Source: an uncultured Holophagales bacterium (GTDB taxonomy: Bacteria > Acidobacteriota > Thermoanaerobaculia > Multivoradales > UBA5704). Taken from it: a DNA stretch of 64,000 bases. Where the stretch lies: positions 1 to 64,000 of the forward strand of contig CAWJGT010000014.1 of assembly GCA_963842525.1 (NCBI GenBank). The letters run 5' to 3'. The first letter of the stretch is position 1, and each line of letters starts with the position of its first letter. This document shows, piece by piece, positions 40,851-63,137 of this stretch. The notes under the pieces were generated by a model. The model saw only the letters and a program-made list of their open reading frames with translations, was not told where the DNA came from and made no database searches. The position numbers were made by a program, and so were the translations under genes.

Positions 40851-40864
40851 AGGGAGCGCGAGCC

Positions 40865-42343: not shown

Positions 42344-42386
42344 AACAGAAGGCCGAAAGAGGCATATACCGCAGGAGGGTTCAAAC

Positions 42387-44801: not shown

Positions 44802-44818
44802 TGCGGAGGAGAACGACG

Positions 44819-45727
44819 ATGCGAACCCACCTGAGATTGGCAATCCTCGCCGCCGCTCTGCCGCTCCTCGCCAACTGCGCAAGCGGCGGTGGCACGACGA
44901 CGACCCCCGCGGTGACCGCCGCGCGGCCGAACATCCCCTTTGCCGCCGTGGACGGCAAGGGCTACGCCGGCAAGCCGGATTTCGCCCGCGTCGAGCGCCT
45001 GCACCCCCTGACCCCGGAGCAGCGCGCGGCGCTGACTCCCGAGAGCCTCGCGACGCTCACCCACGAGGAGCTCGACCAGCTCTATGCCCGCCTCACCGCC
45101 GGTCCGATCCCGGAGGGTCCCTACCAGGGGACGGTAATCTTCGGTGCCGGCGGCGGCCTGCGGCGCCTCAAGGAGATCCTGGGCGGAGGCGTCAAGGGGT
45201 TCCTCGCCGACCGCGCGGTCGACGACCTCCAAGAGGCCGCCGAGGCGCTGTGGAAAGGGAAGGTCTTCTACCGCGACCAGATGGAGCTGCGCAACCAGAT
45301 CACCAACCGCAAGAGGCTGGCGCGCCTGCTCAAGGCCGACCTCTCGAAAATACGTACGGCGACGATCGAAGGCCGCGAGGTGGGCCTGCTCTTCCCGGCC
45401 AAGCTCTATTGCGGCCAGAGCCTGCTCGACAGCCGGCGCGAGTCGGTGATCATCGACTACTTCTTCGGCGACGAGATCGACGGCTACATCCCCGAGATCG
45501 ACGAGCTCGCCGGACGCAACGGCCTCCAGATCCGCGACGAAATCCGCATGGTCCGTCCCGGCTTCTATCTCGGCCGCGCCTACGTGGGGAAGATCTTCCT
45601 CCTCAACTTCACGCTCTACAAGAAGGACGTGGCCGAGGGCGGCAAGGCCGAGTTCGCGAGCACGGGTAAGGTCCACGAAGACTGCCGGCCGGGCGCCCAG
45701 CAGGTCACCCGGACCGCGGGCCGTTGA
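44819..45727 (+). CDS. Hypothetical lipoprotein
   Basis: Lipobox LANC; LWKGKVF, IRDEIRMVRPGFYLGRAY. Confidence 0.8.
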   Translation: MRTHLRLAILAAALPLLANCASGGGTTTTPAVTAARPNIPFAAVDGKGYAGKPDFARVERLHPLTPEQRAALTPESLATLTHEELDQLYARLTAGPIPEGPYQGTVIFGAGGGLRRLKEILGGGVKGFLADRAVDDLQEAAEALWKGKVFYRDQMELRNQITNRKRLARLLKADLSKIRTATIEGREVGLLFPAKLYCGQSLLDSRRESVIIDYFFGDEIDGYIPEIDELAGRNGLQIRDEIRMVRPGFYLGRAYVGKIFLLNFTLYKKDVAEGGKAEFASTGKVHEDCRPGAQQVTRTAGR

Positions 45728-45766
45728 TGGAGATGTGGACCCTTGGCGCCGGCAGTCCGCAACCGC

Positions 45767-48031: not shown

Positions 48032-48087
48032 GGCCTGCCCTCATCAGGGCTCCGTCAAAATCATCGTAGCGGGGGCCTCCCTCCGCA

Positions 48088-48240
48088 CCCTCACCCCCCG
48101 TCCCCCTCTCCCATCCGCACTCACGCCCACCCGGGAGAGGGGGCGCCACCGCCCAAAGCCTTGAAAAAACGAGCGTTGGGGGTTCCCCCTCTCCCGGGAG
48201 GATGGGCGTGCGGATGGGAGAGGGGGTCAGGGGGTGAGGG
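48088..48240. repeat. Family A palindromic element
   Basis: CCCTCACCCCC..CTCTCCCATCCGCAC / GTGCGGATGGGAGAG..GGGGTGAGGG. Confidence 0.9.
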
Positions 48241-48365
48241 TCTTGGGGCGGGGGAAACTCCGTCTCCCCCCGACTTTGACCGAGCCCCGGCCCCCGCCCG
48301 TCTGGGCTTGACGTGCGGCCTGGCGTCTCCGAAGATGAGGCATCACGATCCTGCGGAGGTCTCAC

Positions 48366-48821
48366 ATGCGGCTCCATCGAATGGCTCTCCTCGTCTTCCT
48401 GACCTCCGTCCTGGCGTGCGGCGGCTCCGGCGGCTCCTCCCCCACCGAGCCGCCACCGTCGTCGAATCCAGTCGCCCTGGAGGGATCGTGGAGCGGGAAC
48501 ATCACGGTCACGACTCCCGGCAATGCCGCGACCACCTGCACAACCCGCCTGACACTCTTTCTCGACCAGCAGGTCTACCTGGGGAACTGGGAAGCCCAGT
48601 GCGCGAACGGCACCGAAGGGCGGGGGGTCGCAAACGCCATCCTCGGCCCCTTCGACCTGGCGATCGTCAGCGGCCTCCTGGGCCAGACGGTCTTCGGCGG
48701 CTGTGGCTGGGGGTCCACCGCGATCCGCGAGGGCAACCGTCTCCGGGGGGAATGGAGCACGCCGGAGAACTGCCCGACCGGGCCCGTCCTGCGTGGCCGG
48801 ATCGAGCTGACGAAGCAGTAG
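48366..48821 (+). CDS. Hypothetical lipoprotein
   Basis: RBS GGAGG; lipobox VLAC followed by a GGSGGSSPT linker. Confidence 0.8.
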   Translation: MRLHRMALLVFLTSVLACGGSGGSSPTEPPPSSNPVALEGSWSGNITVTTPGNAATTCTTRLTLFLDQQVYLGNWEAQCANGTEGRGVANAILGPFDLAIVSGLLGQTVFGGCGWGSTAIREGNRLRGEWSTPENCPTGPVLRGRIELTKQ

Positions 48822-49054
48822 GATTCTGGCTCTGAAGCGACAGAGCCGCCGGCAGCGTCGCGCGGGTGGCGGGTGTCCATGAGAAAAGATTGGGCTCTCG
48901 CCGGGGCTCTGGCGACCTCCCCACGGCCTGAACTTTCACGCGCCGGCTGAATTCTCCCACGCGCTAAGTTATCTGGAGGTGTGGCCACGGCCGGGCCGAG
49001 CCTCCTCTGACGCATAAGAACTTCCCGTGTGCCTGAGAGGTTTTTGGGAAGTTG

Positions 49055-49253
49055 AGCCCCGCAGGGGCGGACGGAATTAGCCCGGGCATTCATGCCCGGG
49101 AAGGGAAGGCCAAATCCTCCATCCAGCCCCGTCAGGGGCGGCAGGAGGCCTGTCAGCCGGATTCCTGTCGCCCCTGGCGGGGCTCCGGGAATTTTGGATG
49201 CCTGATTCCCGGGCATGAATGCCCGGGCTAATCCCGGCCGCCCCTGCGGGGCT
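49055..49253. repeat. Nested palindromic element, family C (AGCCCCG..AGGGGCG), REPIN-like
   Basis: Outer arms AGCCCCGCAGGGGCGG..TTAGCCCGGGCATTCATGCCCGGGA and their inverse; inner related hairpin. Confidence 0.8.
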
Positions 49254-49572
49254 GATTTCCAGACACCCCTGAAACGCCAAGCGCACGTAAGGTTGGATGC
49301 GATCTGCCCAACCTCCTTCGCTTGTCGAGCATGACGTAGTTGCGACTTTCGCGGCACAGGGCTCCAGAATGCTTCTCCAAGTGCCTCGCCGGCCTTGACG
49401 CAGGTTAGAAAGAGGTGTAGAGTGCCGCTAAGTCGAAGAGGATAAGCACCTTGCACGCTCGACACCCTGGGACCGGCCGTGGAGTCAACCCGCAGGTTTT
49501 GTCGTATTGGCCTGCGAGCGGGGTGACGGCGAATATGTGAGGCAGGGGTTCGCCGCAAGCTAGGTACGAGCG

Positions 49573-50304
49573 ATGCTAACTGATGGGGGAATGATGAACC
49601 GGCGACCACGTGAAGTCATACTCGCTGCTCGGATCTCCTTCTACCGTTTTGAAGAGAACCAGAGCGGTTACCGCGACAAGGTCGAGTTTAAGAACCTTGA
49701 GGCTCCAAGAGACCACTTAGAGCGAGAGGTGCGACGGACAATCGAATCAGATTTGCCGGCTGAGCTCGAGGCTATTTATGGGCTCCGAGTAAGAACGCGG
49801 TTCATTACCACTCGGCCAGGGAGCGTTATTGCCTTTTTCGCGGTGGTGGTTGAGGCGCTGGGTATTTTTTCAAGCTACTCGGACTTTTTCGAGAGTATAT
49901 CTCTTGTGCGTAAACATTCGGCCGCTCTCCTAGAGCGCCTAATGGAGGAGCGGTACACGCCAGGTCCGAGCCTAACCTCAGATGTTTCGGTGACTGTCGA
50001 ATACCCACGCGTGCCTGATCCTGATGATCTTCATCCGGGTAGGCGGTTTTGGAAGAGATTCGGTCCTGAAGCTGACATGATGTTCGCCGCCGGTTGGAGT
50101 GGCTCACAGCCCCGAGTTCGGCGTGATGGCCTATTCTGGTGGTTGGTGATATGTAACCTCCTTTTTGCCGTTGCTCTAGGGGCCCTTGTCGCGGCAGCAG
50201 TCGTGAGGACATACTTCACTGTTGAACGTGGCCTCCCAGGAGGCTTTCACAAAAGCTCAGGAGCTGCCGAACCGGCAGCCGCATCGGAGAGGATCCAGAA
50301 CTAG
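49573..50304 (+). CDS. Low-GC hypothetical membrane protein, probable integron gene cassette
   Basis: Atypical composition, C-terminal TM, attC-like site 17 bp downstream. Confidence 0.65.
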   Translation: MLTDGGMMNRRPREVILAARISFYRFEENQSGYRDKVEFKNLEAPRDHLEREVRRTIESDLPAELEAIYGLRVRTRFITTRPGSVIAFFAVVVEALGIFSSYSDFFESISLVRKHSAALLERLMEERYTPGPSLTSDVSVTVEYPRVPDPDDLHPGRRFWKRFGPEADMMFAAGWSGSQPRVRRDGLFWWLVICNLLFAVALGALVAAAVVRTYFTVERGLPGGFHKSSGAAEPAAASERIQN

Positions 50305-50321
50305 TCAGTATGCGAGTCGGC

Positions 50322-50389
50322 GGCGAACCCCCGCTTCCACCGGACGGCCGGCTTCGCCGTCCGCACGGTGAAGCGTCAAGGCGTTGGCC
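50322..50389 (+). mobile_element. attC-like recombination site
   Basis: R'' GGCGAAC ... R' GTTGGCC; CGCTTCCACCG / CGGTGAAGCG with an unpaired C; central GC hairpin. Confidence 0.7.
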
Positions 50390-50428
50390 GTCTGCCTGCC
50401 GCCGGCGCTGAATGCCGCGCTGAGGGGC

Positions 50429-50806
50429 AGTGGTCCCGCGGTAGTGCCAAGGTTCCCCGCGGGACTATGGACGTTCACCGCAGCGCCGCGCAGTGGTCCC
50501 GCGGCACCGGCAAGGCTCACCGCGGGACCATGGACGTTCACCGCGGCGACTCGAAGTGGTCCCGCGGCAGCGGCAAGGCTCACCGCGGGAGCATGTAGCT
50601 TCCCCGCAGTGGGGTGAAGTGGTCCCGCAGCACCGCCGGAGCACACCGCGGGACCATGCAAGGTCACCGCGGCGCGGTCCAATGGTCCCGCAGGACCGCC
50701 AGTTCACACAGCGGGACCGTGCACGTGCACCGCGGGGAGGTCAAGTGGTCCCGCGGGACCGCCAGGCGGCACCCCGGGACCATACGCGTCCACCGCAGGA
50801 CCGTCA
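50429..50806. repeat. 18 x 21-bp array organised as 6 x 63-bp higher-order units
   Basis: A(G/A)TGGTCCCGC at 50429, 50492, 50555, 50618, 50681, 50744; phase kept with no indels. Confidence 0.92.
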
Positions 50807-50877
50807 CTCCCATTCGCGGTGGCCGTCTCGACCACCTGGAGCTCGATGGCCGCCACGGCTGCCGTGCTCACAGCCAC

Positions 50878-51201
50878 CTAGGCCTCAGGACGATAGCTTT
50901 CAGGCTCGCAGCGGCTCTCGACTGCCAGCAGGTCCTCCACTTCCCGAGCGGGGCCCGCCTGCTCGGGATCCGGGAAGACGCCGCGAAAAAAGTTCGCGGG
51001 GGGAATACCTGCGGCCTCCAGAACCTCCAGAACCTGGGTCATCTTAAGATGCCGGGTGCCAGCGAAGAGCCGGCTGAGATAGCCACTATGCTCGCTGAAC
51101 CCCATGCGGCGCTCGATCTCGCGGTTTGACAGACCGCTCAGGTGGAGGGCGACCTGAAGCAGACGACGCACTCTTGCCTCGTGCTCCTCGGCGGAAGTCA
51201 T
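50878..51201 (-). CDS. XRE-type HTH regulator
   Basis: LSNREIERRMG..GYLSRLFAG..LK..QVLEVLEAAGIPPANFF; RBS GAAGGGG. Confidence 0.8.
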   Translation of the reverse strand: MTSAEEHEARVRRLLQVALHLSGLSNREIERRMGFSEHSGYLSRLFAGTRHLKMTQVLEVLEAAGIPPANFFRGVFPDPEQAGPAREVEDLLAVESRCEPESYRPEA

Positions 51202-51398
51202 CAGTTTGTCCCCTTCAGGAAAGTCACAAAAAACTGGCCGGGCCGGACTACTCTCGACAATCCCCGTGGGCAGGCCCCAGGAGGGTCAGCTCCAGAGGGA
51301 CCCGGGGAGATGCCGACCACCGCACGGGAGAGGCTGCCCGCCTTGATCTCCCCCAAACCTCGCCCGACCCGACCAGACTCAAAACCGGTCCTCATCGC

Positions 51399-51695
51399 TC
51401 AAGATGGGAAAGCAGTCTTCATCTCGAGCCTGTATGCGACTGCTGGTGTGAAGCCTATAAGTCCGGCAAATTCCACGGGATCGTTGCGTGCAATTTCCGC
51501 CATCGCTTCTCGCGCACGTAACCCTGCCTCAGCGGGTGACTGGAAGACCAGCCAATCCACATCGGTCGCGTGAAGCACAGCTCCATGCTCACCCTCGTCA
51601 AGCTCGACTTCAACGATCTCGCCCTCGATTTGAATCCATCCTTGAGACTCCTGCGGGAGCAACTCTTCGTTGCCTACTTGGGGCGGCGCGATCAT
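51399..51695 (-). CDS. Possible small hypothetical protein
   Basis: Acidic, protein-like composition; purine-rich upstream sequence; no recognisable family. Confidence 0.35.
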   Translation of the reverse strand: MIAPPQVGNEELLPQESQGWIQIEGEIVEVELDEGEHGAVLHATDVDWLVFQSPAEAGLRAREAMAEIARNDPVEFAGLIGFTPAVAYRLEMKTAFPS

Positions 51696-51863
51696 CTCCT
51701 TTTGATGCTCCTCTCTACCGTGGCGAGGCCGCTACGACCCACGCAGGCGAGAGCAGCGACTGTTCCTCCGGGAGGCTCAGCATCCGAATTGGATGTTTTG
51801 GCCTTCTGTCCCGAAAACGTGCCCTGCGGCTACTTACTTGATGGATGGAGGGTCCTTTCGATC

Positions 51864-53351
51864 ATGGAGAATCGGCTTGCGGCTAGGGAAGAGACCACTC
51901 GGCAGAATTCTTCACAGATTGGCTTTGCCCTGGATCTCCTGATGCGCGGGCACGGCTGGACCGGGAAGAAGCTCGCTGAGGCCGCGGGCATCGCCCCCAC
52001 CACGATTTCCGCTTTTGTCAACGATGGCTTGAGCCGGGAGCGCCTGGAGGAGCTGGCCGAGCTCATGGGCCTGAGCCCGCAAGAGGTCGAGCGCGCCGTC
52101 CTCGCCGCCCGGCTTGTCCTGCCTCCCCAACCTTCTCCCCGCACACCGGTGGACCCCACACCCGAGGAGCGCCGCATCGCCGAGAAGGCCGCGGCCCTGG
52201 CTGCCTGCGAGGTGGCGGACCTCGTCCTGGACCTGCGCCTCCGGGAGATCCGGCAGGAAAACACTCGCCGTGATCTTGAAGAAGGAAGGAGGCTCGCCCA
52301 GGAGCTGAAGACCTACACGTCCGCCGACCAGCGCGTCCTGATCGAAGGAGCGCCGGACTACCAGCACTGGGGATTGGCCGTCGCCCTGTGCGAGGACAGC
52401 GAGAAAGCGACGCCGCGAAACCCAGATCACGCGCTGGCGCTGGCCGAGCTGGCCCTCTTCGTTGCCGAGCACGTGGAGGACAGCGCCTTCAAGCCCCGCC
52501 TCCAGGGCTGGTGCACCGGGGTTGGCGCGAACGCTCAACGAGTGCTCGGCCGCGACCTTCCCGGCGCTGCCACAACCTTTGCCCGCGCCTGGCGGCTCTG
52601 GCAAGAAGGTGAGGACTCGGCGGGCCTTCTCTCCAAAGCGCACCTACTCCATTTGGAGGCCTCACTACGCAGGGCTCAGCGGCTCTTTCCCAAGGCGCTG
52701 AAGCTGCACGACGACGCCCTGATGCTGGCCCGGCCCGAAGAGGAAGGCTCCATCCTGCTCAATAAAGCTGTCACTCTCAAGGAAAACGGCGATCCTGAGG
52801 ACGCCCTCCAGATTTTGGCACGGGCGGCCCGGCTCATCGACGCCGAACGGCAGCCACGGCAGAGATGTGTCCTGCGATTCAACCAGGCATCGAACCTGCT
52901 CCTGCTGGGTCGAGCCGCGGAGGCGGCACCGATCGTGGCCGAGGTCCGGGAGTTGGCCGGGCGGTTGCGCAACGCCGAGGACCTGGTGAGAACTCTATGG
53001 CTGGAAGGGAACTGCGCTGCCGGCCTGGGACAGAGTGAGGAGGCTCTCACCAGGTTGGAGCAGGTGCGGCACGAGTTCCAGGTGCGGGACAACCCCTTCG
53101 ACTACGCATTGGCGAGCCTGGACGTGGCGCTGCTCCACCGGCAGGAAGGCCGTTTTGTGGAAGTCAAGGTTCTGGCCGACCAGATGCTTGAGGTCTTCAA
53201 GGCTCAGAAGGTGGACCGGGAAGCCATTGCTGCCGTGATCCTGTTCCGCGAAGCCGCCCAAAAGGAGCAGGTCACCGTGGGGCTGGTCCGGCGTCTCCAG
53301 GACTACCTCTCCAAGGCGAGGAGCGATCCACAGATCCGCTTCGAGGGATAG
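51864..53351 (+). CDS. XRE-HTH + TPR-like repeat protein (candidate receptor 1)
   Basis: GWTGKKLAEAAGIAPTTISAF HTH, followed by Ala/Leu TPR-like helical repeats. Confidence 0.8.
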   Translation: MENRLAAREETTRQNSSQIGFALDLLMRGHGWTGKKLAEAAGIAPTTISAFVNDGLSRERLEELAELMGLSPQEVERAVLAARLVLPPQPSPRTPVDPTPEERRIAEKAAALAACEVADLVLDLRLREIRQENTRRDLEEGRRLAQELKTYTSADQRVLIEGAPDYQHWGLAVALCEDSEKATPRNPDHALALAELALFVAEHVEDSAFKPRLQGWCTGVGANAQRVLGRDLPGAATTFARAWRLWQEGEDSAGLLSKAHLLHLEASLRRAQRLFPKALKLHDDALMLARPEEEGSILLNKAVTLKENGDPEDALQILARAARLIDAERQPRQRCVLRFNQASNLLLLGRAAEAAPIVAEVRELAGRLRNAEDLVRTLWLEGNCAAGLGQSEEALTRLEQVRHEFQVRDNPFDYALASLDVALLHRQEGRFVEVKVLADQMLEVFKAQKVDREAIAAVILFREAAQKEQVTVGLVRRLQDYLSKARSDPQIRFEG

Positions 53352-53379
53352 TTGTTCGGCTGCTGACTTGCGAAGAGGA

Positions 53380-53402
53380 GGGAGGGGTTCGTTACCCCTC
53401 CC
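53380..53402. terminator. Hairpin between convergent TPR gene and peptide gene
   Basis: GGGAGGGGT-TCGTT-ACCCCTCCC. Confidence 0.55.
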
Positions 53403-53417
53403 AAGAAAGTTGTGGCC

Positions 53418-53744
53418 TCAACTTCCGGGCAAACAGCCGCCGTGGGGATCAATCCCGCAGCCTTCACCCGTTGTGGGCTGCGAGACCGCGGCGCAGCCGC
53501 CGTTGGGGTCGAGATTGCAGCCCTCATCCGTTGTGGGCTGCGCGACTGCCGCGCAGCCGCCATAGGGGTCGATCATGCAACCATGCTCCGTCCAGACGGC
53601 CGTGAGGGTGCCCCAAAGGCGTGCGAGGATGTCTAACATGTGCGCCTCGGAAGAGGACCGGCTTGGCGTTGCCCAGGCGGGTGCGCACAACAGGGTGGTG
53701 ACCAGGAAGACGAGGAGGATACGGGCAAGTCGGCGATGGGACAT
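53418..53744 (-). CDS. Secreted 108-aa propeptide with three GCxxDPxGGC cores
   Basis: RBS AAAGGAG; signal peptide ending APAWA; 20-aa repeats CMIDPYGGC, CNLDPNGGC, CGIDPHGGC. Confidence 0.85.
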   Translation of the reverse strand: MSHRRLARILLVFLVTTLLCAPAWATPSRSSSEAHMLDILARLWGTLTAVWTEHGCMIDPYGGCAAVAQPTTDEGCNLDPNGGCAAVSQPTTGEGCGIDPHGGCLPGS

Positions 53745-53886
53745 ACCGGCTCCTTTGGCGGAGGCGGCCTTCAGGACGGCCGCCATGGCCGCGAAGACGC
53801 CCCCGATCCCTCCATGGTGCCCGGACCCGGTGAATTTATCCAACTCGGGCCCACAGCGGTGTGGGCCAAGGCGGTAAGAGAAAGCC

Positions 53887-55386
53887 ATGGCGCGCGACGA
53901 GAGCGAGCACGACGATCAGCACGAGAAGATCCTTTTCGGCGACTTCATCTCCTTTCTTCGCTGGCTGCCGGGGAATTGGTCCCAGGCCCACTTCGCCAGG
54001 AAGGCCGGGATCGACCGCAGCGACCTCTACTCCTATGAAAAAGGAAAAAAACGGCCGCGGGAAGCGACGTTCCAGTTGATCCGGTCGGCAGCCGGCGTGC
54101 CCCAGCGGCTCATTGGTTTTCTCCGCTGGTGCCACTGGCTGGTCCGCAGGGCGCTCGCCCTGGGCCAAGTGGACACCGCTCCGGCCACGGCGCCCCTGCG
54201 TGAAGCGACCCGGGCGGCCGTGTGGGACATCGTCGAGCGGGCGCTGGCCCTGGCCCGCGCGGAGCAAGCGCTGTTGCGGAACGCTCCGCGCCGGCTCGGC
54301 CCTCCGACACAGGAAGACCAACAGCGGGTTTCCGCGCTGTTCGAGAAGCTGAAGAGCTATCCACGGCAGAAGCGGCAGCTTCTCGTTCAGGGCGCGCAGG
54401 CGTACCGTGATCCTTTGCTCTGCCTACATATTTGCCAGAAAAGCGAGGACGCCGCAGCAAACGATCCGGGTGAGGCCCTGGTGCTGGCCGAGTTGGCCCT
54501 GTTCGTTGCCGATCATGTGGAGGAGGGCGTCTTCAAGCCCAGCCTCCAAGCCTGGTGCACCGGGGTCCTCGCAAACGCTCAACGAGTGATTGGCCGGGAC
54601 CTTCCTGGCGCTGCCACAACCTTTGCCCGCGCCTGGCGGCTCTGGCAAGAAGGTAAGGACTCGGCGGGCCTTCTCTCCAAAGCGCACCTACTCCATTTGG
54701 AGGCCTCACTACGCAGGGCTCAGCGGCTCTTTCCCAAGGCGCTGAAGCTGCACGACGACGCCCTGATGCTGGCCCGGCCCGAAGAGGAAGGCTCCATCCT
54801 GCTCAATAAAGCTGTCACTCTCAAGGAAAACGGCGATCCTGAGGACGCCCTCCAGACTTTGGCACGGGCGGCCCGGCTCATCGACGCCGAACGGCAGCCA
54901 CGGCAGAGATGTGTCCTGCGGTTCAACCAGGCGGCGAACCTGCTCTTGCTGGGCCGGGCCGGGGAGGCGGCGCCGATCGTGGCCGAGGTGCGGGAGCTTG
55001 TCGAGCGGCTGCGCAACGAGGTGGACCTCGTCAGAACTATATGGCTGGAAGGGAACTGCGCCGCCGGGCTGGGCCGGCGTGAGGAGGCGCTCACCAAGCT
55101 GGAGCAGGTGCGGCACGAGTTCGAGGTGCGCGAGAACCCCTTCGACTATGCACTGGCAAGTCTGGACCTGGCGATGATCTACCGCGAGGAGGGCCGCTTC
55201 GCGGAAATCAAGGCTCTGGCCGACCAGATGCTGGAGATCTTCAAGGCCCAGAAAGTACACCGGGAAGCCATTGCTGCGGTGATCCTGTTCAAGGAAGCCG
55301 CCGAGAAGCAGCAGGTCACCGCGGAGATGGTCCAGCGGCTCCAGAAGCAGCTCTCCAAGGTGAGGTGCGAAGTAGTGCCACCATAG
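53887..55386 (+). CDS. XRE-HTH + TPR-like repeat protein (candidate receptor 2)
   Basis: WSQAHFARKAGIDRSDLYSYEKGKKRP HTH; C-terminal two-thirds paralogous to 51864-53351. Confidence 0.85.
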   Translation: MARDESEHDDQHEKILFGDFISFLRWLPGNWSQAHFARKAGIDRSDLYSYEKGKKRPREATFQLIRSAAGVPQRLIGFLRWCHWLVRRALALGQVDTAPATAPLREATRAAVWDIVERALALARAEQALLRNAPRRLGPPTQEDQQRVSALFEKLKSYPRQKRQLLVQGAQAYRDPLLCLHICQKSEDAAANDPGEALVLAELALFVADHVEEGVFKPSLQAWCTGVLANAQRVIGRDLPGAATTFARAWRLWQEGKDSAGLLSKAHLLHLEASLRRAQRLFPKALKLHDDALMLARPEEEGSILLNKAVTLKENGDPEDALQTLARAARLIDAERQPRQRCVLRFNQAANLLLLGRAGEAAPIVAEVRELVERLRNEVDLVRTIWLEGNCAAGLGRREEALTKLEQVRHEFEVRENPFDYALASLDLAMIYREEGRFAEIKALADQMLEIFKAQKVHREAIAAVILFKEAAEKQQVTAEMVQRLQKQLSKVRCEVVPP

Positions 55387-55442
55387 ATCCGAGGGCGGGG
55401 CTGCGACCCGAACGGCTAGTTCTACTTTGGCTTTGTAGATTT

Positions 55443-55518
55443 GCTGGGAGCGCCGGCATCCCTGCCGGCCGGCTAACCAAAGACGAAGAAGGCCGGCAAG
55501 GATGCCGGCGCTCCCAGC
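55443..55518. repeat. REP-like doublet, family B-like (GCTGGGAGCGCCGGCATCC..)
   Basis: ~28-bp near-perfect inverted arms. Confidence 0.8.
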
Positions 55519-55540
55519 GGGGTCTGCAGGAAAGTCGCTG

Positions 55541-55866
55541 TCAACTTCCAGGCACGCAGCCGCCGTTGGGATCGATTTTGCAGCCCTCATCCGTTGTGGG
55601 TGCCGAGACTGCCTCACAGCCGCCATGCGGGTCGAGCATGCAGCCATGATCCGTCGTGGGCTGCGATGCCGCGCAACCGCCGTGTGGGTCGATGTGGCAG
55701 CCTTCCTCCGACCAGACGGCCGTGAGCGAACCCCAGAGGCGTGCGAAGATGTCGAGCAAATGCGCCTTGGAGGAAGACCGGCCTGGCATTGCCCAGGAGG
55801 GTGCGCACAACAACAGGGTGGCGACCAGGAAGACGAGGAGGATACGGGCAAGTCGCGATGGGACAT
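55541..55866 (-). CDS. Secreted propeptide 2 with three GCxxDPxGGC cores (1-bp deletion near codon 4)
   Basis: Paralog of 53418-53744; cores CHIDPHGGC, CMLDPHGGC, CKIDPNGGC; RBS AAAGGAG. Confidence 0.8.
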
Positions 55867-56118
55867 GCTGGCTCCTTTGGACGTGGCCGTCGAAGGAATA
55901 GCATAACCCCAGGAGGGTCCTATGTATTGTTCCCGGATACCACCACCAGAGCAGTGGGACAAAGTCGAGAAAGGTCACCGCAGGACGTTCCGCTGTACCC
56001 ACCACGGTCTACCCTTCCGAGTGTTCTGCGGGAAGCCAGCAGTGGCGCTGGTGGGTGCCGATCCGCGCTGCGCGGAGCACTTCATCCAAAGTAGGCGCTA
56101 ACTTTCGCCGGAGGGAAA

Positions 56119-56259
56119 CCTGGGAGCGCCGGCGTCCCGCCGGCCCGGAGCTTCGCCGGCCGCTTGGGCACCGTCAGACACCACCACCGCTCCAGCTCTA
56201 GGCGGCCCCATCTCCTCCACGGCCTCGTGGAGAGCCGGCGGGACGCCGGCGCTCCCAGG
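56119..56259. repeat. REP-like doublet, family B-like
   Basis: CCTGGGAGCGCCGGCGTCCCGCCGGC and its exact inverse. Confidence 0.8.
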
Positions 56260-56429
56260 GCCACCCTCCCCGACCCGGCTGTCACACAGGTGGACGAGGC
56301 AAAGTGAGCGCCTATGCCCGCCAGCTCCCCGGGAGAGGGGCTCGACCGCGTTGTACGCGGTCCCCGGTTGCCGTAAAATGTCTTCCGGGTTCGCGATAAA
56401 TACGAATCCCGTCGAAAGGGAGGTGTCCA

Positions 56430-56693
56430 ATGACCATGTTCCGCAAGGTCCTGACTGCGAGCGCTGTCGCCATTGTGCTTGCCTCCGTGCCCTCGCATCT
56501 AGCGGCACAGGATGGGCCAGCCGCGACCGAGGTACGCGCCTCGATGCTCGGGTGGTTTACCAGTATCTGGGGTGATCTCACCGCCTGGCTCGCTGGCGAA
56601 GTGGCGCCGGCTCCGCCTCAGCCCGAATGGCTTTCTCAGAGCCAAGCCGACAACGGGTGCATTGTCGACCCGCACGGCGGTTGCGGCGGTTAA
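56430..56693 (+). CDS. Secreted propeptide 3 with one C-terminal core, DNGCIVDPHGGCGG
   Basis: RBS GGAGG; signal peptide; shared WGxLTA motif; same core consensus. Confidence 0.85.
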   Translation: MTMFRKVLTASAVAIVLASVPSHLAAQDGPAATEVRASMLGWFTSIWGDLTAWLAGEVAPAPPQPEWLSQSQADNGCIVDPHGGCGG

Positions 56694-56742
56694 AGCAAGG
56701 GCTTCTCTCGGTAGAAGCTTTTGGGCTATCATCCACGGGCTT

Positions 56743-57768
56743 ATGGCCCAACACCCGGGAGTGGGCGTGTGCTTGCCACCCTTCAGCAGCCCGGCGGCTG
56801 CGCGCCTCAGCTTGACCAACCAGCCGAACCCGAGTCGGATTCTTGCCGTCGCCGAGTACGGTTACAGCCTGAGGTTCGTGGATCCTCCTGCCGGGGTTGA
56901 GTGGTGCCGGGTCGCCGCAGACGTGTTCACCGACACCCTGGACCCGAGCCTACGGGGGCGGGTGGTTGGCTACTTCGGCAACAGTCTTCGCGTGGTGGGC
57001 AACTACGATGAAGCCAGGGAGGTTCTCCGTCTCGCGCTCGAGGTCCTTCCTGGCGACCCGCTCCTCCTCGAATTCAAGGCGTCCCTGCACCGAGACGTCC
57101 GTCAATTTGAAGTAGCTACCGAATGCCTGCGCGACGCCGCCGGGATCCAGCGGGCTTGTGGTGACGTGGCAGGGTTCGCCCGTACGCTGCTCATTACGGC
57201 CCAGGTGATGGACCTCGCTGGAAAATCGCAGGGAGCGGCCGGGCTTTGCCTCGAAGCCTTGGACCTTTTGGACAGCGCTGTTGACCCAAGCCGCAATCTC
57301 CTGCGGACTGCCGTCCAGAATTATGCGGGATACATGTGCCATGCTGGAAAGCCGCTGGCGGCACTGCGGGCTCTGCGAACGGCGGAGCCTTTGCTCGCTA
57401 GCGAGGAGCCGTACTTTAAACTTCGTCTCGAGTGGTTGTTCGGCCAGATCGCTGCCGCACTCGGCGACGAATCGGCTGAGCGTCGATTGGAGTGCGTCCG
57501 GCAAGAGTTCGCGAAAGGTGGCCTTTACCATGAGGCAGCTATCGCTACGCTCGACCTGGCCAGGTACTTCGTGCTCCGCCGGGACCCCCGCGCTGCACCC
57601 GTGGCGCTGTCAGTTGCCCCACTTCTCGAGTCTTTGGGGATCGATCGCGATGCTCGGGAAGCGAAGCTTCTCGGTGAGCTCGCGATGGCTGATTCGAACG
57701 TCGAGCACCTTATCGCCGAGCTCTATGAGGCGATCGTGTGGCGCCCCGCGGCGCGGCAGGTCGCCTAA
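56743..57768 (+). CDS. TPR-like protein without HTH (candidate receptor 3); start uncertain
   Basis: LRLEWLFGQIAAALG..LECVRQEF..AAIATLDLA aligns by eye with VRTLWLEGNCAAGLG..LEQVRHEF..YALASLDVA. Confidence 0.75.
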   Translation: MAQHPGVGVCLPPFSSPAAARLSLTNQPNPSRILAVAEYGYSLRFVDPPAGVEWCRVAADVFTDTLDPSLRGRVVGYFGNSLRVVGNYDEAREVLRLALEVLPGDPLLLEFKASLHRDVRQFEVATECLRDAAGIQRACGDVAGFARTLLITAQVMDLAGKSQGAAGLCLEALDLLDSAVDPSRNLLRTAVQNYAGYMCHAGKPLAALRALRTAEPLLASEEPYFKLRLEWLFGQIAAALGDESAERRLECVRQEFAKGGLYHEAAIATLDLARYFVLRRDPRAAPVALSVAPLLESLGIDRDAREAKLLGELAMADSNVEHLIAELYEAIVWRPAARQVA

Positions 57769-58133
57769 CGACCGGCAGCGCCACCGCTTTCGTCTTCGTC
57801 GTTCAGCCGCGGCCGAAGCCCGTAGCGTTCCATTGCGCGAAGGAAGCGCGTATCAAAGTCGTCGTCCGCGTCGCGGAATCCCTCTTTCCCATAGATGCTG
57901 GCGAAGAAATCGGCTGGCTTCAGGCCAAGCGCCAGGAGCACGGTAAAGATGTGCTCGGCGGTCACGGCGATGCGCCCCTTGAAGAGGTGGGTGAAATAGC
58001 CGTCGGCCCTGCCGGTCCTGGCCGCAAGCTCCTTGAGGTCAACTCCGCTCCGGTCCACCGCCTGCTGCAGGGCCTCGCGGAGCACTTTCGTCATCTCCTT
58101 TGCCTCGCGCTGAACTCGGGCTGGGCTGCGCAT
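57765..58133 (-). CDS. XRE-type HTH regulator, probably leaderless
   Basis: DLKELAARTGRADGYFTHLFKG..LGLKPADFF; similar to 50878-51201. Confidence 0.8.
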   Translation of the reverse strand: MRSPARVQREAKEMTKVLREALQQAVDRSGVDLKELAARTGRADGYFTHLFKGRIAVTAEHIFTVLLALGLKPADFFASIYGKEGFRDADDDFDTRFLRAMERYGLRPRLNDEDESGGAAGR

Positions 58134-58139
58134 GTGCCT

Positions 58140-58222
58140 AGGATACGCCCCCCGCGCGGGGACCGTCAACTGAAGCGACTTCAATTTGGGGTGTTGACAA
58201 TCTCAGTTTGCTGTCTTATCCT
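58140..58222. promoter_or_regulatory. Back-to-back divergent sigma70 promoters
   Basis: Plus: TTGACA(58194)-N17-TATCCT(58217). Minus: TTGACG(58169)-N18-TATCCT(58145), 6 nt before ATG 58133. Confidence 0.7.
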
Positions 58223-58374
58223 TCAGTCATGGACATCAAGAGGCTCTTCCAGATGCCCGATCCGAGCCTCATGGATCGACTGAGGATTCTGAAGAAGCTG
58301 ACGTAGGAACAGCGCGCATTGAGTCACCCTTCCGGAGCCGATCGAGGCCCGGAATTTCCGAAAGGAGAAGCAGT

Positions 58375-58689
58375 ATGGTTACTCAGCAAGCAGTCGAGAC
58401 GAGTCTGAAGCCGGAGCGGGTGCAGGAGCCGTTCGCGACCGGAGCGGCGGCGCTCACTGCCGGAGGGCTGGTCATCCAGCTCAAGGCGGAGCGGGTGCAG
58501 GAGCCCACTCTGGCCGCGGCGGGAGCCACCGTCACCTACACCTACGAGCTCGCGGTCAATCAGCCCCAGGTTGTGGAGATCGAGCTTCCCATGGCGATCG
58601 TCACCCTTCTGGGTAGTCCCGCCTGGGGGGCTCCCGAGGTCGTGCCCGCTGCGGGCTGTCCCGCAGGAAAGGAGGAAAACAATGCCTAG
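58375..58689 (+). CDS. Hypothetical protein with duplicated LKxERVQEP motif
   Basis: RBS AAAGGAG; two motif copies 75 bp apart. Confidence 0.65.
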   Translation: MVTQQAVETSLKPERVQEPFATGAAALTAGGLVIQLKAERVQEPTLAAAGATVTYTYELAVNQPQVVEIELPMAIVTLLGSPAWGAPEVVPAAGCPAGKEENNA

Positions 58690-59098
58690 AGCCAGTTCGT
58701 TTGCCCACGTCATACGGGACTGGGAGAGTCTGCTCGCTGCCCTCAACCAGCATGCAGAGCTCCAGGTCACTCTCGAAACCGAACGTCTGGCCCTGGAGAC
58801 CGACTTGACCGAGGCGCGGGCTCTCAAGACGCAGCAGGAGACACAGAATGCTGGCCGGCAGGAGCTGACGCAGCGGATCAAGACGGTGGTGGCCCACGGC
58901 AAGGACGTGGCCATTGCGATCCGGGCCGTGACCAGGGGCAAGATCGGTTTCCGCAACGAGCGGCTGGTCCACTTCGGAATGACTCCGTTCCGCAAGCGGG
59001 TGCGCAAGCTGGCGGTCAAGCCGGAGGGCGAGGAACCGGGCGACGAGCCCACCGGGCCGGAAGCTTCGGCGGGTGGAGCCAAGACGCTCGACTCCTGA
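58682..59098 (+). CDS. Small helical hypothetical protein (paralog A)
   Basis: RBS AAGGAGG; SFAHVIRDWESLL...GKIGFRNERLVHFGMTPFRKR. Confidence 0.8.
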   Translation: MPRASSFAHVIRDWESLLAALNQHAELQVTLETERLALETDLTEARALKTQQETQNAGRQELTQRIKTVVAHGKDVAIAIRAVTRGKIGFRNERLVHFGMTPFRKRVRKLAVKPEGEEPGDEPTGPEASAGGAKTLDS

Positions 59099-59114
59099 AC
59101 AACTCAACACACCC

Positions 59115-59145
59115 TGGGGGCGTGCTCCGGCACGCCCCCTTTTTT
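59115..59145 (+). terminator. Rho-independent terminator
   Basis: GGGGGCGTGC-TCCG-GCACGCCCCC followed by a T run. Confidence 0.75.
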
Positions 59146-59181
59146 GGAAGCCAACGCCGTTTCTATAGAAAGGAGAGGATC

Positions 59182-59550
59182 GTGTCGAAGCCGAATTCAT
59201 TCCGGGCTGTGCTCGCAGACTGGGAAAACCTGCTCAGCGCCGTCGGAGCTACGTCGTACGACATTCCTGACATCGCTTCCATCCGGAACGAGCTGGAGGA
59301 TGCTGTCCAGAAGGCCCGGGCGCACAAGATCCAGCAGGTTGCGCTCCAGATCGCCAGCCAACAATCGACGCGCCAGGTGAACGAGGCCTTGGCGCACGGC
59401 CGGGAGGTGGTCTTGCGAATGCGCAGCTTTCTGAAGGGTCGTCTCGGTCCCCACAACGAGGAGCTGCTCCGCTTCGGGGTCGCCCCAATCCGCAAGCGCG
59501 GGTCGCGCCACACGCTTCTGCCGCGGGCCGTGGAATCCCAGGTCAACTGA
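59182..59550 (+). CDS. Small helical hypothetical protein (paralog B)
   Basis: GTG after AAGGAGAGG; SFRAVLADWENLL...GRLGPHNEELLRFGVAPIRKR. Confidence 0.8.
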   Translation: MSKPNSFRAVLADWENLLSAVGATSYDIPDIASIRNELEDAVQKARAHKIQQVALQIASQQSTRQVNEALAHGREVVLRMRSFLKGRLGPHNEELLRFGVAPIRKRGSRHTLLPRAVESQVN

Positions 59551-59619
59551 AGCTCTCACAACTCCCTTGGGGGCGTGCTGCGGCACGGCCGGCCTGCGCG
59601 TCCCCGAGCTTCTGCACGA

Positions 59620-59815
59620 TCTGACGGGCGGCACCGACACCAAGCACTACCAGCACCTGACCCGCAACGTCTATCGCTTCATGCCGATCCCTGTCACCAG
59701 CGAGGATCTGCCCCGCCTCCATGGCACGAACGAGCGGGCGGGTGTCCAGGACTATGGCGGAGCTGTCCGTTTCTACGCGCAGCTCCTGCGCAACGCGGCG
59801 GGCCAGCCTATTTGA
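59620..59815 (+). pseudogene. Orphan C-terminal fragment of an M20-family peptidase
   Basis: GGTDTKHY..VYRFMP..RLHGTNER; no N-terminal part in the window. Confidence 0.7.
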
Positions 59816-60245
59816 ACAGCGCGTCGAAGGCGGCGCGGGCGTCTCCCGGGGCTGGCTTGTCGGAGTCCTTGGCGAACTCCTGCGCCACCTTGGGGGTGAA
59901 AAGCGTGCACTCGTTGCGGGTGCTCTTCTTGAGGATCTTCGCCGGGATCGCCTCGAACTGGCGGCACTCCCAGCGGGCCGAGGTGTCGAAGTGGATGCAG
60001 TTCGAGCAGGTGTGGAGGTCCATGCCGCATTTGGCGCAGGTGGCGTCGACGGGGACCTCCTCGGTGAGGACCCGTTTCTCGCCGCACCTGGCGCAACGGA
60101 AGACGCTCTCGGTGGGGGCTCCCATCCCCCGGCCCCGCGGCGGCCCGTCTTTCTTCTCCCGAGGCGGCGGCGGACCGGGACGCGGGCTGCCGCGGTCGCC
60201 CGAGTCCTGGTAACCGCGCTGGCGGTATTTGCGCTCATCGGACAT
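59808..60245 (-). CDS. Cys-rich (zinc-ribbon-like) hypothetical protein
   Basis: CARC, CAKC, HTCSNC, two further Cys; ends ARAAFDALFK. Confidence 0.8.
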   Translation of the reverse strand: MSDERKYRQRGYQDSGDRGSPRPGPPPPREKKDGPPRGRGMGAPTESVFRCARCGEKRVLTEEVPVDATCAKCGMDLHTCSNCIHFDTSARWECRQFEAIPAKILKKSTRNECTLFTPKVAQEFAKDSDKPAPGDARAAFDALFK

Positions 60246-60623: not shown

Positions 60624-60674
60624 CCGCAAACCTCCGGCCCTCCGTTGCGTATTTCGTACCGGAGAGCCGAGCCG

Positions 60675-63137
60675 GTGACGAATCGCTGGAAGGACGAGCT
60701 ACGGCAGGACGTGCGGTTCGGGATCCGCATCCTCCGCAAAAGCCCGACCTTCGCCCTGATGGCGACCCTCTCCGTGGCCCTGGGCGTCGCCGCCAACGTC
60801 ATCGTCTTCGGCCTCCTCTACGCGGCCCTGCTCCGGCCGCTCCCCTTCAAGGACTCTGGCCGGGTCGTCGCCGTGCAATCCAAGGGGCCCGAGGACACTC
60901 CCGGGGAAGGAATGCTCTTCTCCTTCCCCGACTATCAGGACCTCCGCCAATCGAACAGGGCGAACAGGGCCTTCGAGGAGACCGGCGCCTACCTGCTCGG
61001 ATATGGCCTCACGCTGAGCGGCAGCGAAGGGCCGGAGCGCGTGGAGGCGGGCCTGGTCTCGGCGGAGCTGTTTCCCCTGCTCGGCGTCGACCCGATCCTC
61101 GGCCGGCACTTCCACAAGGACGAAGACCGTTGGGAAGAGCCGCCGACGCTCCTGCTGAGCCATGAGCTGTGGCAAACGCGCTTCGGAGGCGATCCGCAGA
61201 TCGTCGGGCGGCAGGTCCTGGCCAACTCGATTCCCCACACCGTCGTCGGCGTGATGCCGCCAGGGTTTCGCTTACCGTACAACCGCTACATGGCATGGGT
61301 CCCGCTGAGGACCCGGATGGAGCCGACGGCCCAACGGGCTCTGCGCAACCTGACCGTGCTGGCCCGTCTACGGCCGGGCGTCACCCTGGAGGAGGCGCAG
61401 AAGGAGGTCTCGTCCCTCGCGGGAGACCTCGCTCGCAAGTACCCTGACTCGAACGCTGGCTGGAGCGCGACCGTCGTACCGGCGCGCAAGGCGATGCTCG
61501 TGCCGCAGCTTCAGGTCATCCTCCTGTCCCTGATGGGGGTGGTCTCCTTCGTCCTCCTCATTGCGTGCGCGAACGTGGCCCACCTGGTCCTGGAGCTGGT
61601 CATCGAGCGAAAGCGGGAGATCTCGATCCGGGCAGCCTTCGGAGCCGGGCGCCGGCGGCTCGTCCGCCAACTCCTCACGGAGAGCATCCTGATCGCCCTG
61701 GCCGGTGGTCTCCTGGGAACTCTCGCCGCAGCCTGGGGGCTCCGGGGCGTCGCGAGGCTGCTCCCCGAGGGAATCGCCCCCTATTGGCTGTGCATCCGGC
61801 TGGATACGCCGGTCCTGGCCTGCGCGGCCGGAGCCACGGCTGCGGCCTGGCTCCTCTTCGGGATGGCGCCAGCGCTTCAGGCCTCGCGGCCCGATCTCCA
61901 TACGGCGCTCAAGGACGGCGGGCGCAGCGCCGGGAGCACCCGGGCGCGGCGAGCCCGCGCCTCCCTGATCGTCGCCGAGGTGGCGGTCTCGACGGTGCTC
62001 CTCGTCGGCTCCGCGCTGCTGCTGCGCAGCTTCCTGGCCCTTCGCGCCGCCGATCTGGGGATCCAGACGAAAGGGCTCGTGTCCCTGTGGATCTACCTGC
62101 CCGGGGACACCTACAAGGATCAAGCAGTGCTGAAAGCGGAGCGTGTCGCCGAGGTCGTCAGCCGGCTCCGGGACATCCCCGGCGTGGATTCGGCAGCCGC
62201 TTCGAATAACGTGCCTGTCTACGGTGGCTCGAGCACCAAGCTCGACGAAGTCGAAAGCGAGGGATGGCCGGCCGGCAAGCCCCGGGACGCCGCGACCTCG
62301 ATCTTCGTGACTTCGGGGTTTTTCCAGGCGGCGGGAGCTCGCCTGCTCCAGGGCCGTGATCTCACGCCGGAGGAGGCCGTGGATGTCTCGGGCGTGGCAG
62401 TGGTGAACGAGACCTTCGCCCGGCGCTTCTGGCCGGACAGAGACGCGGTGGGCCGGCGCTTCCAGTTCCACGGTGGCTCGACCAGTGACTGGCTCACGGT
62501 GGTCGGCGTCGTGCGCGATCTGCGCGACCAGAGCGATCTCCGCAACGCCATCATGCCCTGCGCCTATGTCCCCTTCGCCTACAACCGCGGCCGCCCCGCC
62601 GCGATCCTGCTGCGCACGCAAAGAGACCTCAAGGTGCTACTTCCCAAGGTGAGGGAGGCGGTCCGCGCCGTCGATCCCAGCTTCCCGGTTTTCCGGGTCG
62701 CCACCATGGAGGAGAACCTGTCGGAGGCCCTCCACCTCGACCGGCTGTTCAGCAGCGGATTCGCTCTCTTCGGTGCCCTGGGATTGCTGCTCGCCGCGGT
62801 GGGCGTCTATGGGGTCCTGTCCTATGCTGTGAGCCGGCGGCTGCGGGAGATCGGGATCCGGCTGGCCCTGGGAGCGCGGCGCTGGGACGTGCTGCGCCTC
62901 GTCGTCGGCCATGGCATTCTGCTGACCATCGCAGGCATCGTCCTCGGGTTGGCGGGAGCCGCCGCCGTCTCCGGCAACATCACCGAGGCCCTCACCCTCT
63001 ATCAGGTGACTTCCACCGATCCGGTGAGCTTCGCCGGCGTCTCGATCCTTCTCATCGAGGTCGCCTTCTTCGCCAGCTACCTGCCCGCCCGCCGCGCCAC
63101 GGAGGTCGATCCCATCACGGTGCTGCGCGGCGAGTAG
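60675..63137 (+). CDS. ABC permease, duplicated MacB/FtsX (ADOP-type)
   Basis: QDVRFGIRILRKSP, VLLIACANVA, RQLLTES, YLPARRATEVDP. Confidence 0.9.
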   Translation: MTNRWKDELRQDVRFGIRILRKSPTFALMATLSVALGVAANVIVFGLLYAALLRPLPFKDSGRVVAVQSKGPEDTPGEGMLFSFPDYQDLRQSNRANRAFEETGAYLLGYGLTLSGSEGPERVEAGLVSAELFPLLGVDPILGRHFHKDEDRWEEPPTLLLSHELWQTRFGGDPQIVGRQVLANSIPHTVVGVMPPGFRLPYNRYMAWVPLRTRMEPTAQRALRNLTVLARLRPGVTLEEAQKEVSSLAGDLARKYPDSNAGWSATVVPARKAMLVPQLQVILLSLMGVVSFVLLIACANVAHLVLELVIERKREISIRAAFGAGRRRLVRQLLTESILIALAGGLLGTLAAAWGLRGVARLLPEGIAPYWLCIRLDTPVLACAAGATAAAWLLFGMAPALQASRPDLHTALKDGGRSAGSTRARRARASLIVAEVAVSTVLLVGSALLLRSFLALRAADLGIQTKGLVSLWIYLPGDTYKDQAVLKAERVAEVVSRLRDIPGVDSAAASNNVPVYGGSSTKLDEVESEGWPAGKPRDAATSIFVTSGFFQAAGARLLQGRDLTPEEAVDVSGVAVVNETFARRFWPDRDAVGRRFQFHGGSTSDWLTVVGVVRDLRDQSDLRNAIMPCAYVPFAYNRGRPAAILLRTQRDLKVLLPKVREAVRAVDPSFPVFRVATMEENLSEALHLDRLFSSGFALFGALGLLLAAVGVYGVLSYAVSRRLREIGIRLALGARRWDVLRLVVGHGILLTIAGIVLGLAGAAAVSGNITEALTLYQVTSTDPVSFAGVSILLIEVAFFASYLPARRATEVDPITVLRGE

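Follow-up and report, generated by a model that had tools for sequence, protein, structure and literature searches.

Three small genes, P1, P2 and P3, lie beside genes for tetratricopeptide repeat (TPR) proteins in a 64,000-nucleotide stretch of the genome of an uncultured Holophagales bacterium (C14:1–64000, hereafter the window; the genome comprises 9.95 Mb in 34 contigs at 67.5% G+C). Our analysis places them in a large, unnamed and lineage-restricted family of pro-peptides, each encoded with a TPR protein that would act as its cytoplasmic sensor, and we favor, with a probability of about 0.5, the reading that these two-gene units are secreted peptide/TPR-sensor cassettes of Acidobacteriota that resemble the RRNPP systems. 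Passages of PMC10075063 describe an RRNPP cassette as a gene for a small secreted pro-peptide together with a gene for a cytoplasmic TPR sensor, and passages of the same source and of PMC7564271 present RRNPP as a Gram-positive or Firmicutes trait. A signal/sensor pair is the simplest account of the units found here because they are conserved, co-duplicated and free of enzymes. The family itself, its architecture, its tight and conserved pairing with TPR genes, the TPR fold of the partner, the alternative output domains and the lack of a recurrent modifying enzyme are all direct observations.

P1 (53418–53744, minus strand) encodes a precursor of 108 residues with a signal peptide, a Trp-rich helix and three nine-residue Cys-closed cores on the same strand, CMIDPYGGC (53553–53579), CNLDPNGGC (53493–53519) and CGIDPHGGC (53433–53459), spaced 20 residues apart. 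Its ATG (53742–53744) is accompanied by an AAAGGAG ribosome site at 53750–53756, its N-terminus (MSHRRLARILLVFLVTTLLCAPAWA) is signal-peptide-like and its Trp-rich segment reads LARLWGTLTAVW. In a low-confidence AF2 model of P1 (mean pLDDT 55), helices 2–18 and 30–52 correspond to the signal peptide and the Trp-rich segment, respectively, and a weak hairpin (55–65) spans the first ring. A lipoprotein reading was rejected, as the Cys of the LLCAP signal peptide misfits, by eye, the lipobox pattern. P2 (55541–55866, minus strand; core frame 55541–55858) is a paralog 75% similar to P1, with the minus-strand cores CHIDPHGGC (55673–55699), CMLDPHGGC (55616–55642) and CKIDPNGGC (55556–55582). P3 (56430–56693, plus strand) encodes an 87-residue precursor with a different signal peptide, a Trp-rich segment and a single core, CIVDPHGGC (56658–56684, plus strand); it matches the family profile described below at E 8.4e-19 and is immediately followed by TPR_C on its own strand, a layout shared by its paralogs at C1:560974–561264 and C34:233930–234262.

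These seven cores are exactly those listed, in three small open reading frames (ORFs), by an earlier note made from the letters of this DNA. Its description of P1 and P2 core starts 19–20 residues apart with PTT(D/G) linkers also holds, and so does the Trp-rich segment ascribed to all three precursors, which reads LWGTLTAVW in P1, LWGSLTAVW in P2 and IWGDLTAWL in P3. Its statement that the signal peptides differ is true of P3; those of P1 and P2 are nearly identical. Neither Pfam nor NCBIfam holds a family matched by P1, P2 or P3, and the precursors have no match in PADLOC or PHROGs.

Compared with P1 and with paralogs on contigs C19 and C9, P2 has lost 1 nt, which puts its start (ATG 55864–55866; together with its AAAGGAG ribosome site, 55864–55878) in a different frame from the cores; the similarity upstream is lost too. 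P2 is therefore either a pseudogene or altered by an assembly indel. The frameshift may be an assembly error rather than decay, since TPR paralogs are split between frames elsewhere in this genome (C9:4462–6001, C3:1044413–1045886, C1:43553–44961 and C5:32930–34482) and frameshifts also distinguish the otherwise near-identical duplicated contig ends, C8 from C10 and C9 from C18. Such split frames represent either cassette decay or indel errors of the assembly.

A profile built from 23 paralogs retrieved 58 ORFs from this genome, of which 57 are small (54 distinct) and one is long. Against a library of 1.84 billion cluster representatives, it gave 2803 matches at E ≤ 1e-3 and 946 at E ≤ 1e-10. 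In a protein atlas, all nearest clusters are named 'hypothetical protein', and Acidobacteriota is the commonest taxon. A crude heuristic, rather than SignalP, was used to call signal peptides and was passed by 45 of the 54 distinct precursors; a Trp-containing amphipathic segment is found in 42 of them. The C-terminal end carries the common unit, 1–4 copies of [DEK]-x-G-x-x-[ILVM]-D-P-x-G, with the last DPxG forming the exact C-terminus in 20/54 precursors and standing no more than 7 residues from the end in 47/54. Cys rings occur in only 24/54 distinct precursors of this genome, and more than half of the family here is devoid of Cys. The fixed scaffold of C, D, P, G, G and C proposed in the earlier note therefore describes the cores of the window; family-wide, C, G8 and C are not constant. 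The constant of the whole family is G(–1)-x-x-[ILVM]-D-P-x-G, and the Cys ring is an elaboration rather than a defining feature.

The variation of the rings was surveyed in 159 homologs, which are the top matches of a mostly ring-type profile and thus form a sample biased toward rings. These homologs contain 426 nine-residue rings, 285 of them distinct, in which a G precedes the first Cys in 424 cases. The residues seen are I, L, A, V or M at position 3 and N, D, S, H, Y or F at position 6; at position 8, R occurs in 210/426 and G in 103/426 rings. As position 8 is more often R than G across homologs, the 'GG' of the window cores is a local trait common to close orthologs. The idea that variable positions are set on a kept scaffold is borne out, with positions 2, 6 and 8 varying, and the same ring is repeated within a precursor in only 12 of 147 multi-ring precursors. 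A pattern search of the kind suggested in the earlier note gave, for the strict C.[ILVM]DP.GGC, 10 six-frame matches genome-wide versus 0.06 expected, all 10 within family precursors; the looser C..DP.G.C gave 49 six-frame matches versus 4.0 expected. Taken with the predicted signal peptides, these sequences support the reading of the genes as multi-core secreted precursors.

The long profile matches are RHS-repeat proteins, which are picked up through an xDPxGR hairpin turn. This resemblance to RHS/YD repeats supports a beta-hairpin turn for the core. The RHS proteins are distinct from the precursors in that they are large and polymorphic (2005–3728 residues), have neither the signal peptide/Trp-helix leader nor Cys staples, and, in the cases examined, do not accompany TPR genes. 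A metagenomic protein of 783 residues, P0045, carries a signal peptide and about 40 tandem x[ILVM]DP[ND]G[KR] units, with a VDEWD..VVKR repeat at the C-terminus, and matches no Pfam family; it shows that DPxG units can also be strung into a long array. A match to DUF6799 on the homolog P0015 (31.1 bits) was taken as compositional, with no recurrence in the window proteins.

The genomic partner of the family is a TPR gene. When the 1451 ORFs within 4 kb of the 57 loci were clustered, TPR was the sole recurrent neighbor family, present at 56/57 loci. A second cluster, at 37/57 loci, overlaps the TPR genes on the opposite strand, judging from the coordinates of its longest member; the next occurs at 6/57 loci, and Pfam assigns no family to the longest ORFs of five minor clusters. 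Within this 4-kb distance, the 57 loci share no recurrent radical-SAM, YcaO, ATP-grasp, lanthipeptide, peptidase or ABC exporter family. The earlier note had set TPR genes against enzymes of ribosomally synthesized and post-translationally modified peptides (RiPPs) as the neighbors to look for, and homologs proved to stand beside TPR genes rather than RiPP enzymes when the 57 loci here and 10 elsewhere were examined. Within 2.5 kb, a TPR ORF lies beside 51/57 precursors, and 68 of the 86 TPR ORFs are near a precursor.

The pair occurs in two layouts. The same-strand layout, with the precursor upstream of the TPR gene, is found at 28 loci and at 2 more with an additional upstream TPR gene; its precursors are mostly Cys-free, and P3/TPR_C shares it. 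In the ring-type layout, to which P1 and P2 belong, the precursor is convergent with a TPR gene (18 loci) and, at 12 of these loci, also divergent from a second one. Flanking TPR homologs in this layout were likewise present at 10/10 loci from 9 other genomes. Furthermore, the nearest paralogs of precursor and TPR protein agree in 9/29 same-strand pairs (reached in 0/5000 permutations) and in 6/16 convergent pairs (7/5000 permutations), where about 1 is expected by chance in either case, and in 3/13 divergent pairs (510/5000 permutations). The cassettes thus duplicate as units.

The family is concentrated among close relatives. Its profile matches 31 of 41 related genomes; all 24 sampled genomes of the same family are matched, with 2 to 57 matches each, as are 6/16 from other families of the order, and in an even sample of the phylum, where 16 candidates per genome were scored, 2/301 genomes had a match at E ≤ 1e-5. 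The TPR family is present in 38/41 relatives. In a sister family, two genomes with 13–14 TPR homologs have no profile match, and 4/12 of their TPR loci keep an upstream same-strand ORF with a signal peptide; these four ORFs end in ...YIDPIGNS, ...ATDPDG, ...GIDPIGGG and ...AEPDGG, following the pattern [IA][DE]PxG. With such upstream ORFs beyond the reach of the profile, the pairing of precursor and TPR gene is older than the recognizable family. A locus search with P1 alone returned one related locus. Homolog records are titled Acidobacteriota, Thermoanaerobaculia, and the atlas clusters are Acidobacteriota, so the hosts lie outside the Bacillota to which RRNPP is assigned. Our literature search, with subscription journals and supplements outside its scope, found neither this family nor any RRNPP-like system of Acidobacteria described.

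TPR_A (51864–53351, plus strand; start taken from the 495-residue gene call P0185) encodes an XRE-type helix-turn-helix (HTH) and TPR regulator of 495 residues, with Pfam HTH_3 and TPR_12, and is convergent with P1, the two stop codons being 66 bp apart. TPR_B (53887–55386, plus strand; 499 residues) has the same XRE-type HTH and TPR composition and the same Pfam matches, HTH_3 and TPR_12, and is divergent from P1 and convergent with P2. Homologs of both are likewise annotated as HTH plus TPR. An AF2 model of TPR_B (pLDDT 89.3) shows the HTH at the N-terminus, a pair of long linker helices and a TPR superhelix (residues 136–495). In the structural ranking by Foldseek and VIA-align, peptide-binding TPR superhelices come first: LGN (Z 22.9), RapJ–PhrC (Z 21.7; root-mean-square deviation 4.1 over 294 aligned residues), the phage Phi3T Rap with its pheromone (Z 21.1–21.6), NprR (Z 20.0), subunits of APC (Z about 20) and AimR (Z 17.0). 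These tied scores point to a peptide-binding type of fold, not to RRNPP membership. A prediction of a complex between the TPR domain of TPR_A and P1 without its signal peptide, run without controls, scored 0.01. A defence-system or prophage reading finds no support, as PADLOC and PHROGs give only generic HTH matches for the TPR proteins and none for the precursors.

TPR_C (56695–57768, start approximate, plus strand) has Pfam TPR matches only, and no HTH or zinc motif is detectable in it. Its homologs follow P3-like precursors on C1 and C34. Convergent with TPR_C lies a gene for a small XRE-like HTH protein of 139 residues (57765–58184, minus strand; Pfam HTH_31 at E 0.0024, under the curated cut-off), and a tblastn search found the same arrangement at C34:232465–232815. 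Another small XRE-like HTH ORF (50878–51201, minus strand; 107 residues, Pfam E 0.0075, under the cut-off) stands upstream of TPR_A, and its paralogs adjoin other cassettes at C7:90480–90728 and C9:406297–406509.

Many same-strand partners elsewhere in the genome carry a different N-terminal module. No HTH was found in the 5 same-strand partners tested, and these partners show no hydrophobic segment (maximum KD19 ≤ 1.95); 12 of them align along H-x24-H-x4-C-x2-C, with H23, C53 and C56 unchanged throughout and H48 almost always kept. The corresponding domain profile matches the anti-sigma factors ChrR (E 7.6e-4) and RsiW (E 0.19), and 3hug_B (E 0.061), an entry titled only 'probable conserved membrane protein' that we take to be RslA of M. 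tuberculosis. The alignment with ChrR extends over both His and the CxxC. The domain is distinct from the zinc-binding anti-sigma factors ChrR, RslA and RsiW in its H-x4-C-x2-C spacing, where that class, whose N-terminal helical domain binds an ECF sigma factor, has H-x3-C-x2-C, in its fusion to TPR and in the usual lack of an adjacent sigma gene. The motif H...[HQ]x3-4CxxC occurs in 15/29 same-strand partner ORFs and in 0/23 convergent and 0/14 divergent ones; the domain belongs to these paralogs and not to TPR_A, TPR_B or TPR_C. Pfam assigns no family to 4 N-terminal pieces at E ≤ 1, and zf-HC2 gives no match. One sensor family would thus bear three alternative outputs, an XRE HTH, a ChrR-like zinc domain or a separate small HTH gene as beside TPR_C, following the same logic that separates Rap from NprR and PlcR. 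At C34:43598–47855, Sigma70_r2 genes (43598–43783 and 46015–46203) are each followed by a TPR paralog (44391–45416 and 47259–47855, respectively), and no small ORF ending in [DE]PxG was found in this interval; these may be sigma/anti-sigma(TPR) pairs without a peptide. Genome-wide, Sigma70_r2 gave 47 matches.

In the cassette reading, the pre-pro-peptide would be exported by Sec and its signal peptide removed, as suggested by the n/h/c regions and an A-x-A site. In the ring subfamily, to which P1, P2 and P3 belong, the Cys residues flanking each x-[ILV]-D-P-x-G-x loop would be oxidized in the periplasm, yielding a 9-residue disulfide-stapled hairpin. Cutting of the linkers would release 1–4 related, non-identical peptides per precursor, consistent with the family ending at or just after the last unit. 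The peptide, probably re-imported and reduced beforehand, would then be recognized by the TPR domain of the neighboring protein; three OppA/DppA-type binding proteins (SBP_bac_5) are encoded, which is a generic feature. The N-terminal module of the sensor would set the output, through the XRE HTH in TPR_A and TPR_B or through the ChrR-like zinc anti-sigma domain in the partners of many Cys-free precursors, and TPR_C, without an output module, has a separate small HTH gene beside it. A fuller version, which we hold somewhat less probable than the cassette reading itself, is that one Acidobacteriota order (Thermoanaerobaculia by the titles of homolog records) carries dozens of cognate cassettes per genome, independent of or very distant from the Firmicute RRNPP, whose precursors release 'cocktails' of non-identical disulfide-stapled D-P-x-G hairpins and whose outputs are XRE or anti-sigma domains.

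The cassettes share several features with the RRNPP systems of Bacillota, their phages and plasmids (Rap–Phr, NprR–NprX, PlcR–PapR, Rgg–SHP and AimR–AimP). In both, a secreted pro-peptide gene stands beside a cytoplasmic TPR sensor gene, the presumed active part is at the C-terminal end of the pro-peptide, the sensor bears either an XRE HTH (as in NprR, PlcR and AimR) or a non-DNA-binding output (as in Rap), and many paralogous cassettes occur per genome; moreover, the TPR_B model has Rap, NprR and AimR near the top of its structural matches. The differences are these: the host here is a diderm acidobacterium, no sequence homology is detected, the units share an invariant D-P-x-G, a pro-peptide holds 2–4 non-identical units, which in one subfamily are closed by Cys into rings, the sensor gene usually lies downstream of the peptide gene or converges with it, and an anti-sigma-like domain is one of the outputs. 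By analogy, the cassette would work like RRNPP, but it falls outside RRNPP on receptor homology and taxon. A lineage-specific expansion is also reported, in passages of PMC7425212, for the Aloha (Alo) peptide-receptor systems of Paenibacillus, which unlike the present ones are Gram-positive; this comparison is by description and not by sequence.

A number of points weigh against signaling through these cassettes. Secretion, cleavage, disulfide formation, import and binding are proposed steps. Acidobacteria are diderm, so that a signal would need two passages through the outer membrane, and the cytoplasm would reduce any disulfide ring. Dozens of signals that are supposed to be specific share an unvarying D/P/G motif, which the cassette reading does not explain, and the core-plus-linker part of four paralogs has a crude ratio of nonsynonymous to synonymous substitution rates (dN/dS) of 0.28–0.56, with no sign of positive or diversifying selection. 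The fold match of the TPR_B model is generic, the eukaryotic LGN and APC scoring as well as Rap; a phmmer search of the PDB gave no sequence link to solved RRNPP receptors, its one match being unrelated (E 0.45), and Pfam and NCBIfam return generic HTH_3 and TPR with no RRNPP-specific family. In addition, the global correlation of precursor and partner distances is weak (Spearman 0.22 for same-strand, about 0 for convergent and –0.14 for divergent pairs), and co-duplication of neighbors is by itself no proof of binding. Few same-strand cassettes lie near a sigma gene, one being seen about 2 kb away at C24:113641; the sigma-factor gene at C9:582190 adjoins a ring-type, not a same-strand, cassette. 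Finally, P2 and several TPR paralogs are frameshifted in the assembly.

The strongest competitor, although we consider it improbable, is that the TPR protein only controls the peptide gene and the peptide is an extracellular antimicrobial, adhesive, anti-predation or matrix factor that is never sensed by the TPR domain. Pairing and co-duplication would fit such a dedicated regulator no less than a receptor, XRE regulators are commonly encoded divergently from the gene they control, and disulfide-stapled hairpins are typical of stable extracellular peptides. However, no immunity gene, exporter or protease recurs in the 57 loci, one regulator for each small peptide in about 50 cassettes is hard to rationalize, and many of the partners are anti-sigma-like rather than DNA-binding, with genes that follow the peptide gene on its own strand. 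Far less likely still is a family of multi-core RiPP precursors in which the Trp-rich helix serves as leader for a modifying enzyme encoded elsewhere. A conserved helical leader does precede repeated variable cores, and in the same four paralogs the synonymous rate (dS) of the leader, 0.11–0.44, is below the 0.52–0.97 of the cores, a difference that may also stem from gene conversion or nucleotide-level constraint. Against this stand the lack of any recurring radical-SAM, YcaO, ATP-grasp, lanthipeptide or peptidase family around the 57 loci and the gene content of the window, where the neighbors of the precursors are HTH, TPR and unknown-function proteins with no RiPP-type modifying enzyme among them. 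Furthermore, the precursors carry predicted Sec-type signal peptides, which are unusual for RiPP leaders.

At a similarly low, marginally lower level of probability, the precursors could be unprocessed periplasmic or extracellular repeat proteins that bind Ca or another metal, with D-x-G-x-x-I-D-P-N/D-G as an acidic loop. Acidic residues at positions –3, 4 and often 6 of each unit are in keeping with this, as are the resemblance of the unit, by eye, to part of an EF-hand or thrombospondin-type loop, the roughly 40 xDPNG(K/R) units of the 783-residue P0045 and the DPxGR hairpin common to RHS-repeat proteins. Such a function leaves the 1:1 pairing with cytoplasmic TPR proteins unexplained, however; no Ca-binding family is matched in Pfam or NCBIfam, and position 6 is S, H, Y or F in 161/426 rings.

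If the fuller version, with dozens of cognate cassettes per genome, is true, it would be the first peptide-receptor signaling of this kind outside Bacillota and the first with an anti-sigma factor as receptor. If the cassettes work as proposed, kin recognition or density sensing would become directly testable in abundant, poorly cultured soil bacteria, and the cassettes would introduce new design principles, namely multiple non-identical signals per precursor and one sensor fold leading to HTH or anti-sigma outputs. Even if signaling is wrong, this is a large and conserved family that Pfam and NCBIfam do not name and that keeps a strict partner in the genome.

The intergenic regions of the window contain further elements. 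An 8+8 palindrome, GGCCCACA-GCGG-TGTGGGCC (53848–53867), lies in the divergent region between P1 and TPR_B, 20 nt ahead of the start codon of TPR_B. The C19 copy preserves it, the C9 copy has changes on both arms (CCCTCA CCGG TGAGGG), and it could be an operator or a hairpin. Between the stop codons of TPR_B and P2, an inverted repeat (55443–55518) has 28-nt arms that are 96% complementary with 20 nt between them; a terminator-like site at 55509–55492 falls within it, and the repeat looks like a bidirectional terminator. A promoter scan found no sigma-70-like site near the precursors.

The G+C content falls to 0.63–0.655 over the cassette region (48001–60000) and is 0.68–0.73 to both sides. 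Downstream of the cassettes, a paralogous pair of small ORFs (58571–59098, 175 residues, and 59122–59550, 142 residues, both on the plus strand) shares the motif ...NE.L..FG..P.RKR... and has no Pfam, PADLOC or PHROG family. Two inverted Acido-Lenti-1 matches (Rfam RF01687) occur at 49055–49100 (minus strand) and 49208–49253 (plus strand). The genome holds 122 matches, 98 of them above the gathering score, and many copies form minus/plus pairs with starts about 154 bp apart, for example at C24:30149/30338 and C9:1320815/1320970; the copies are not co-located with the peptide cassettes. Acido-Lenti-1 here thus resembles a dispersed, inverted-end element more than a small RNA present in one copy. 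A run of large c-type cytochrome genes occupies 39252–48031, two of which encode a RoxA-like cytochrome c domain and are followed by proteins of 804 and 762 residues with cbb3-type haem motifs, and a MacB_PCD/FtsX permease of 830 residues is encoded at 60645–63137.

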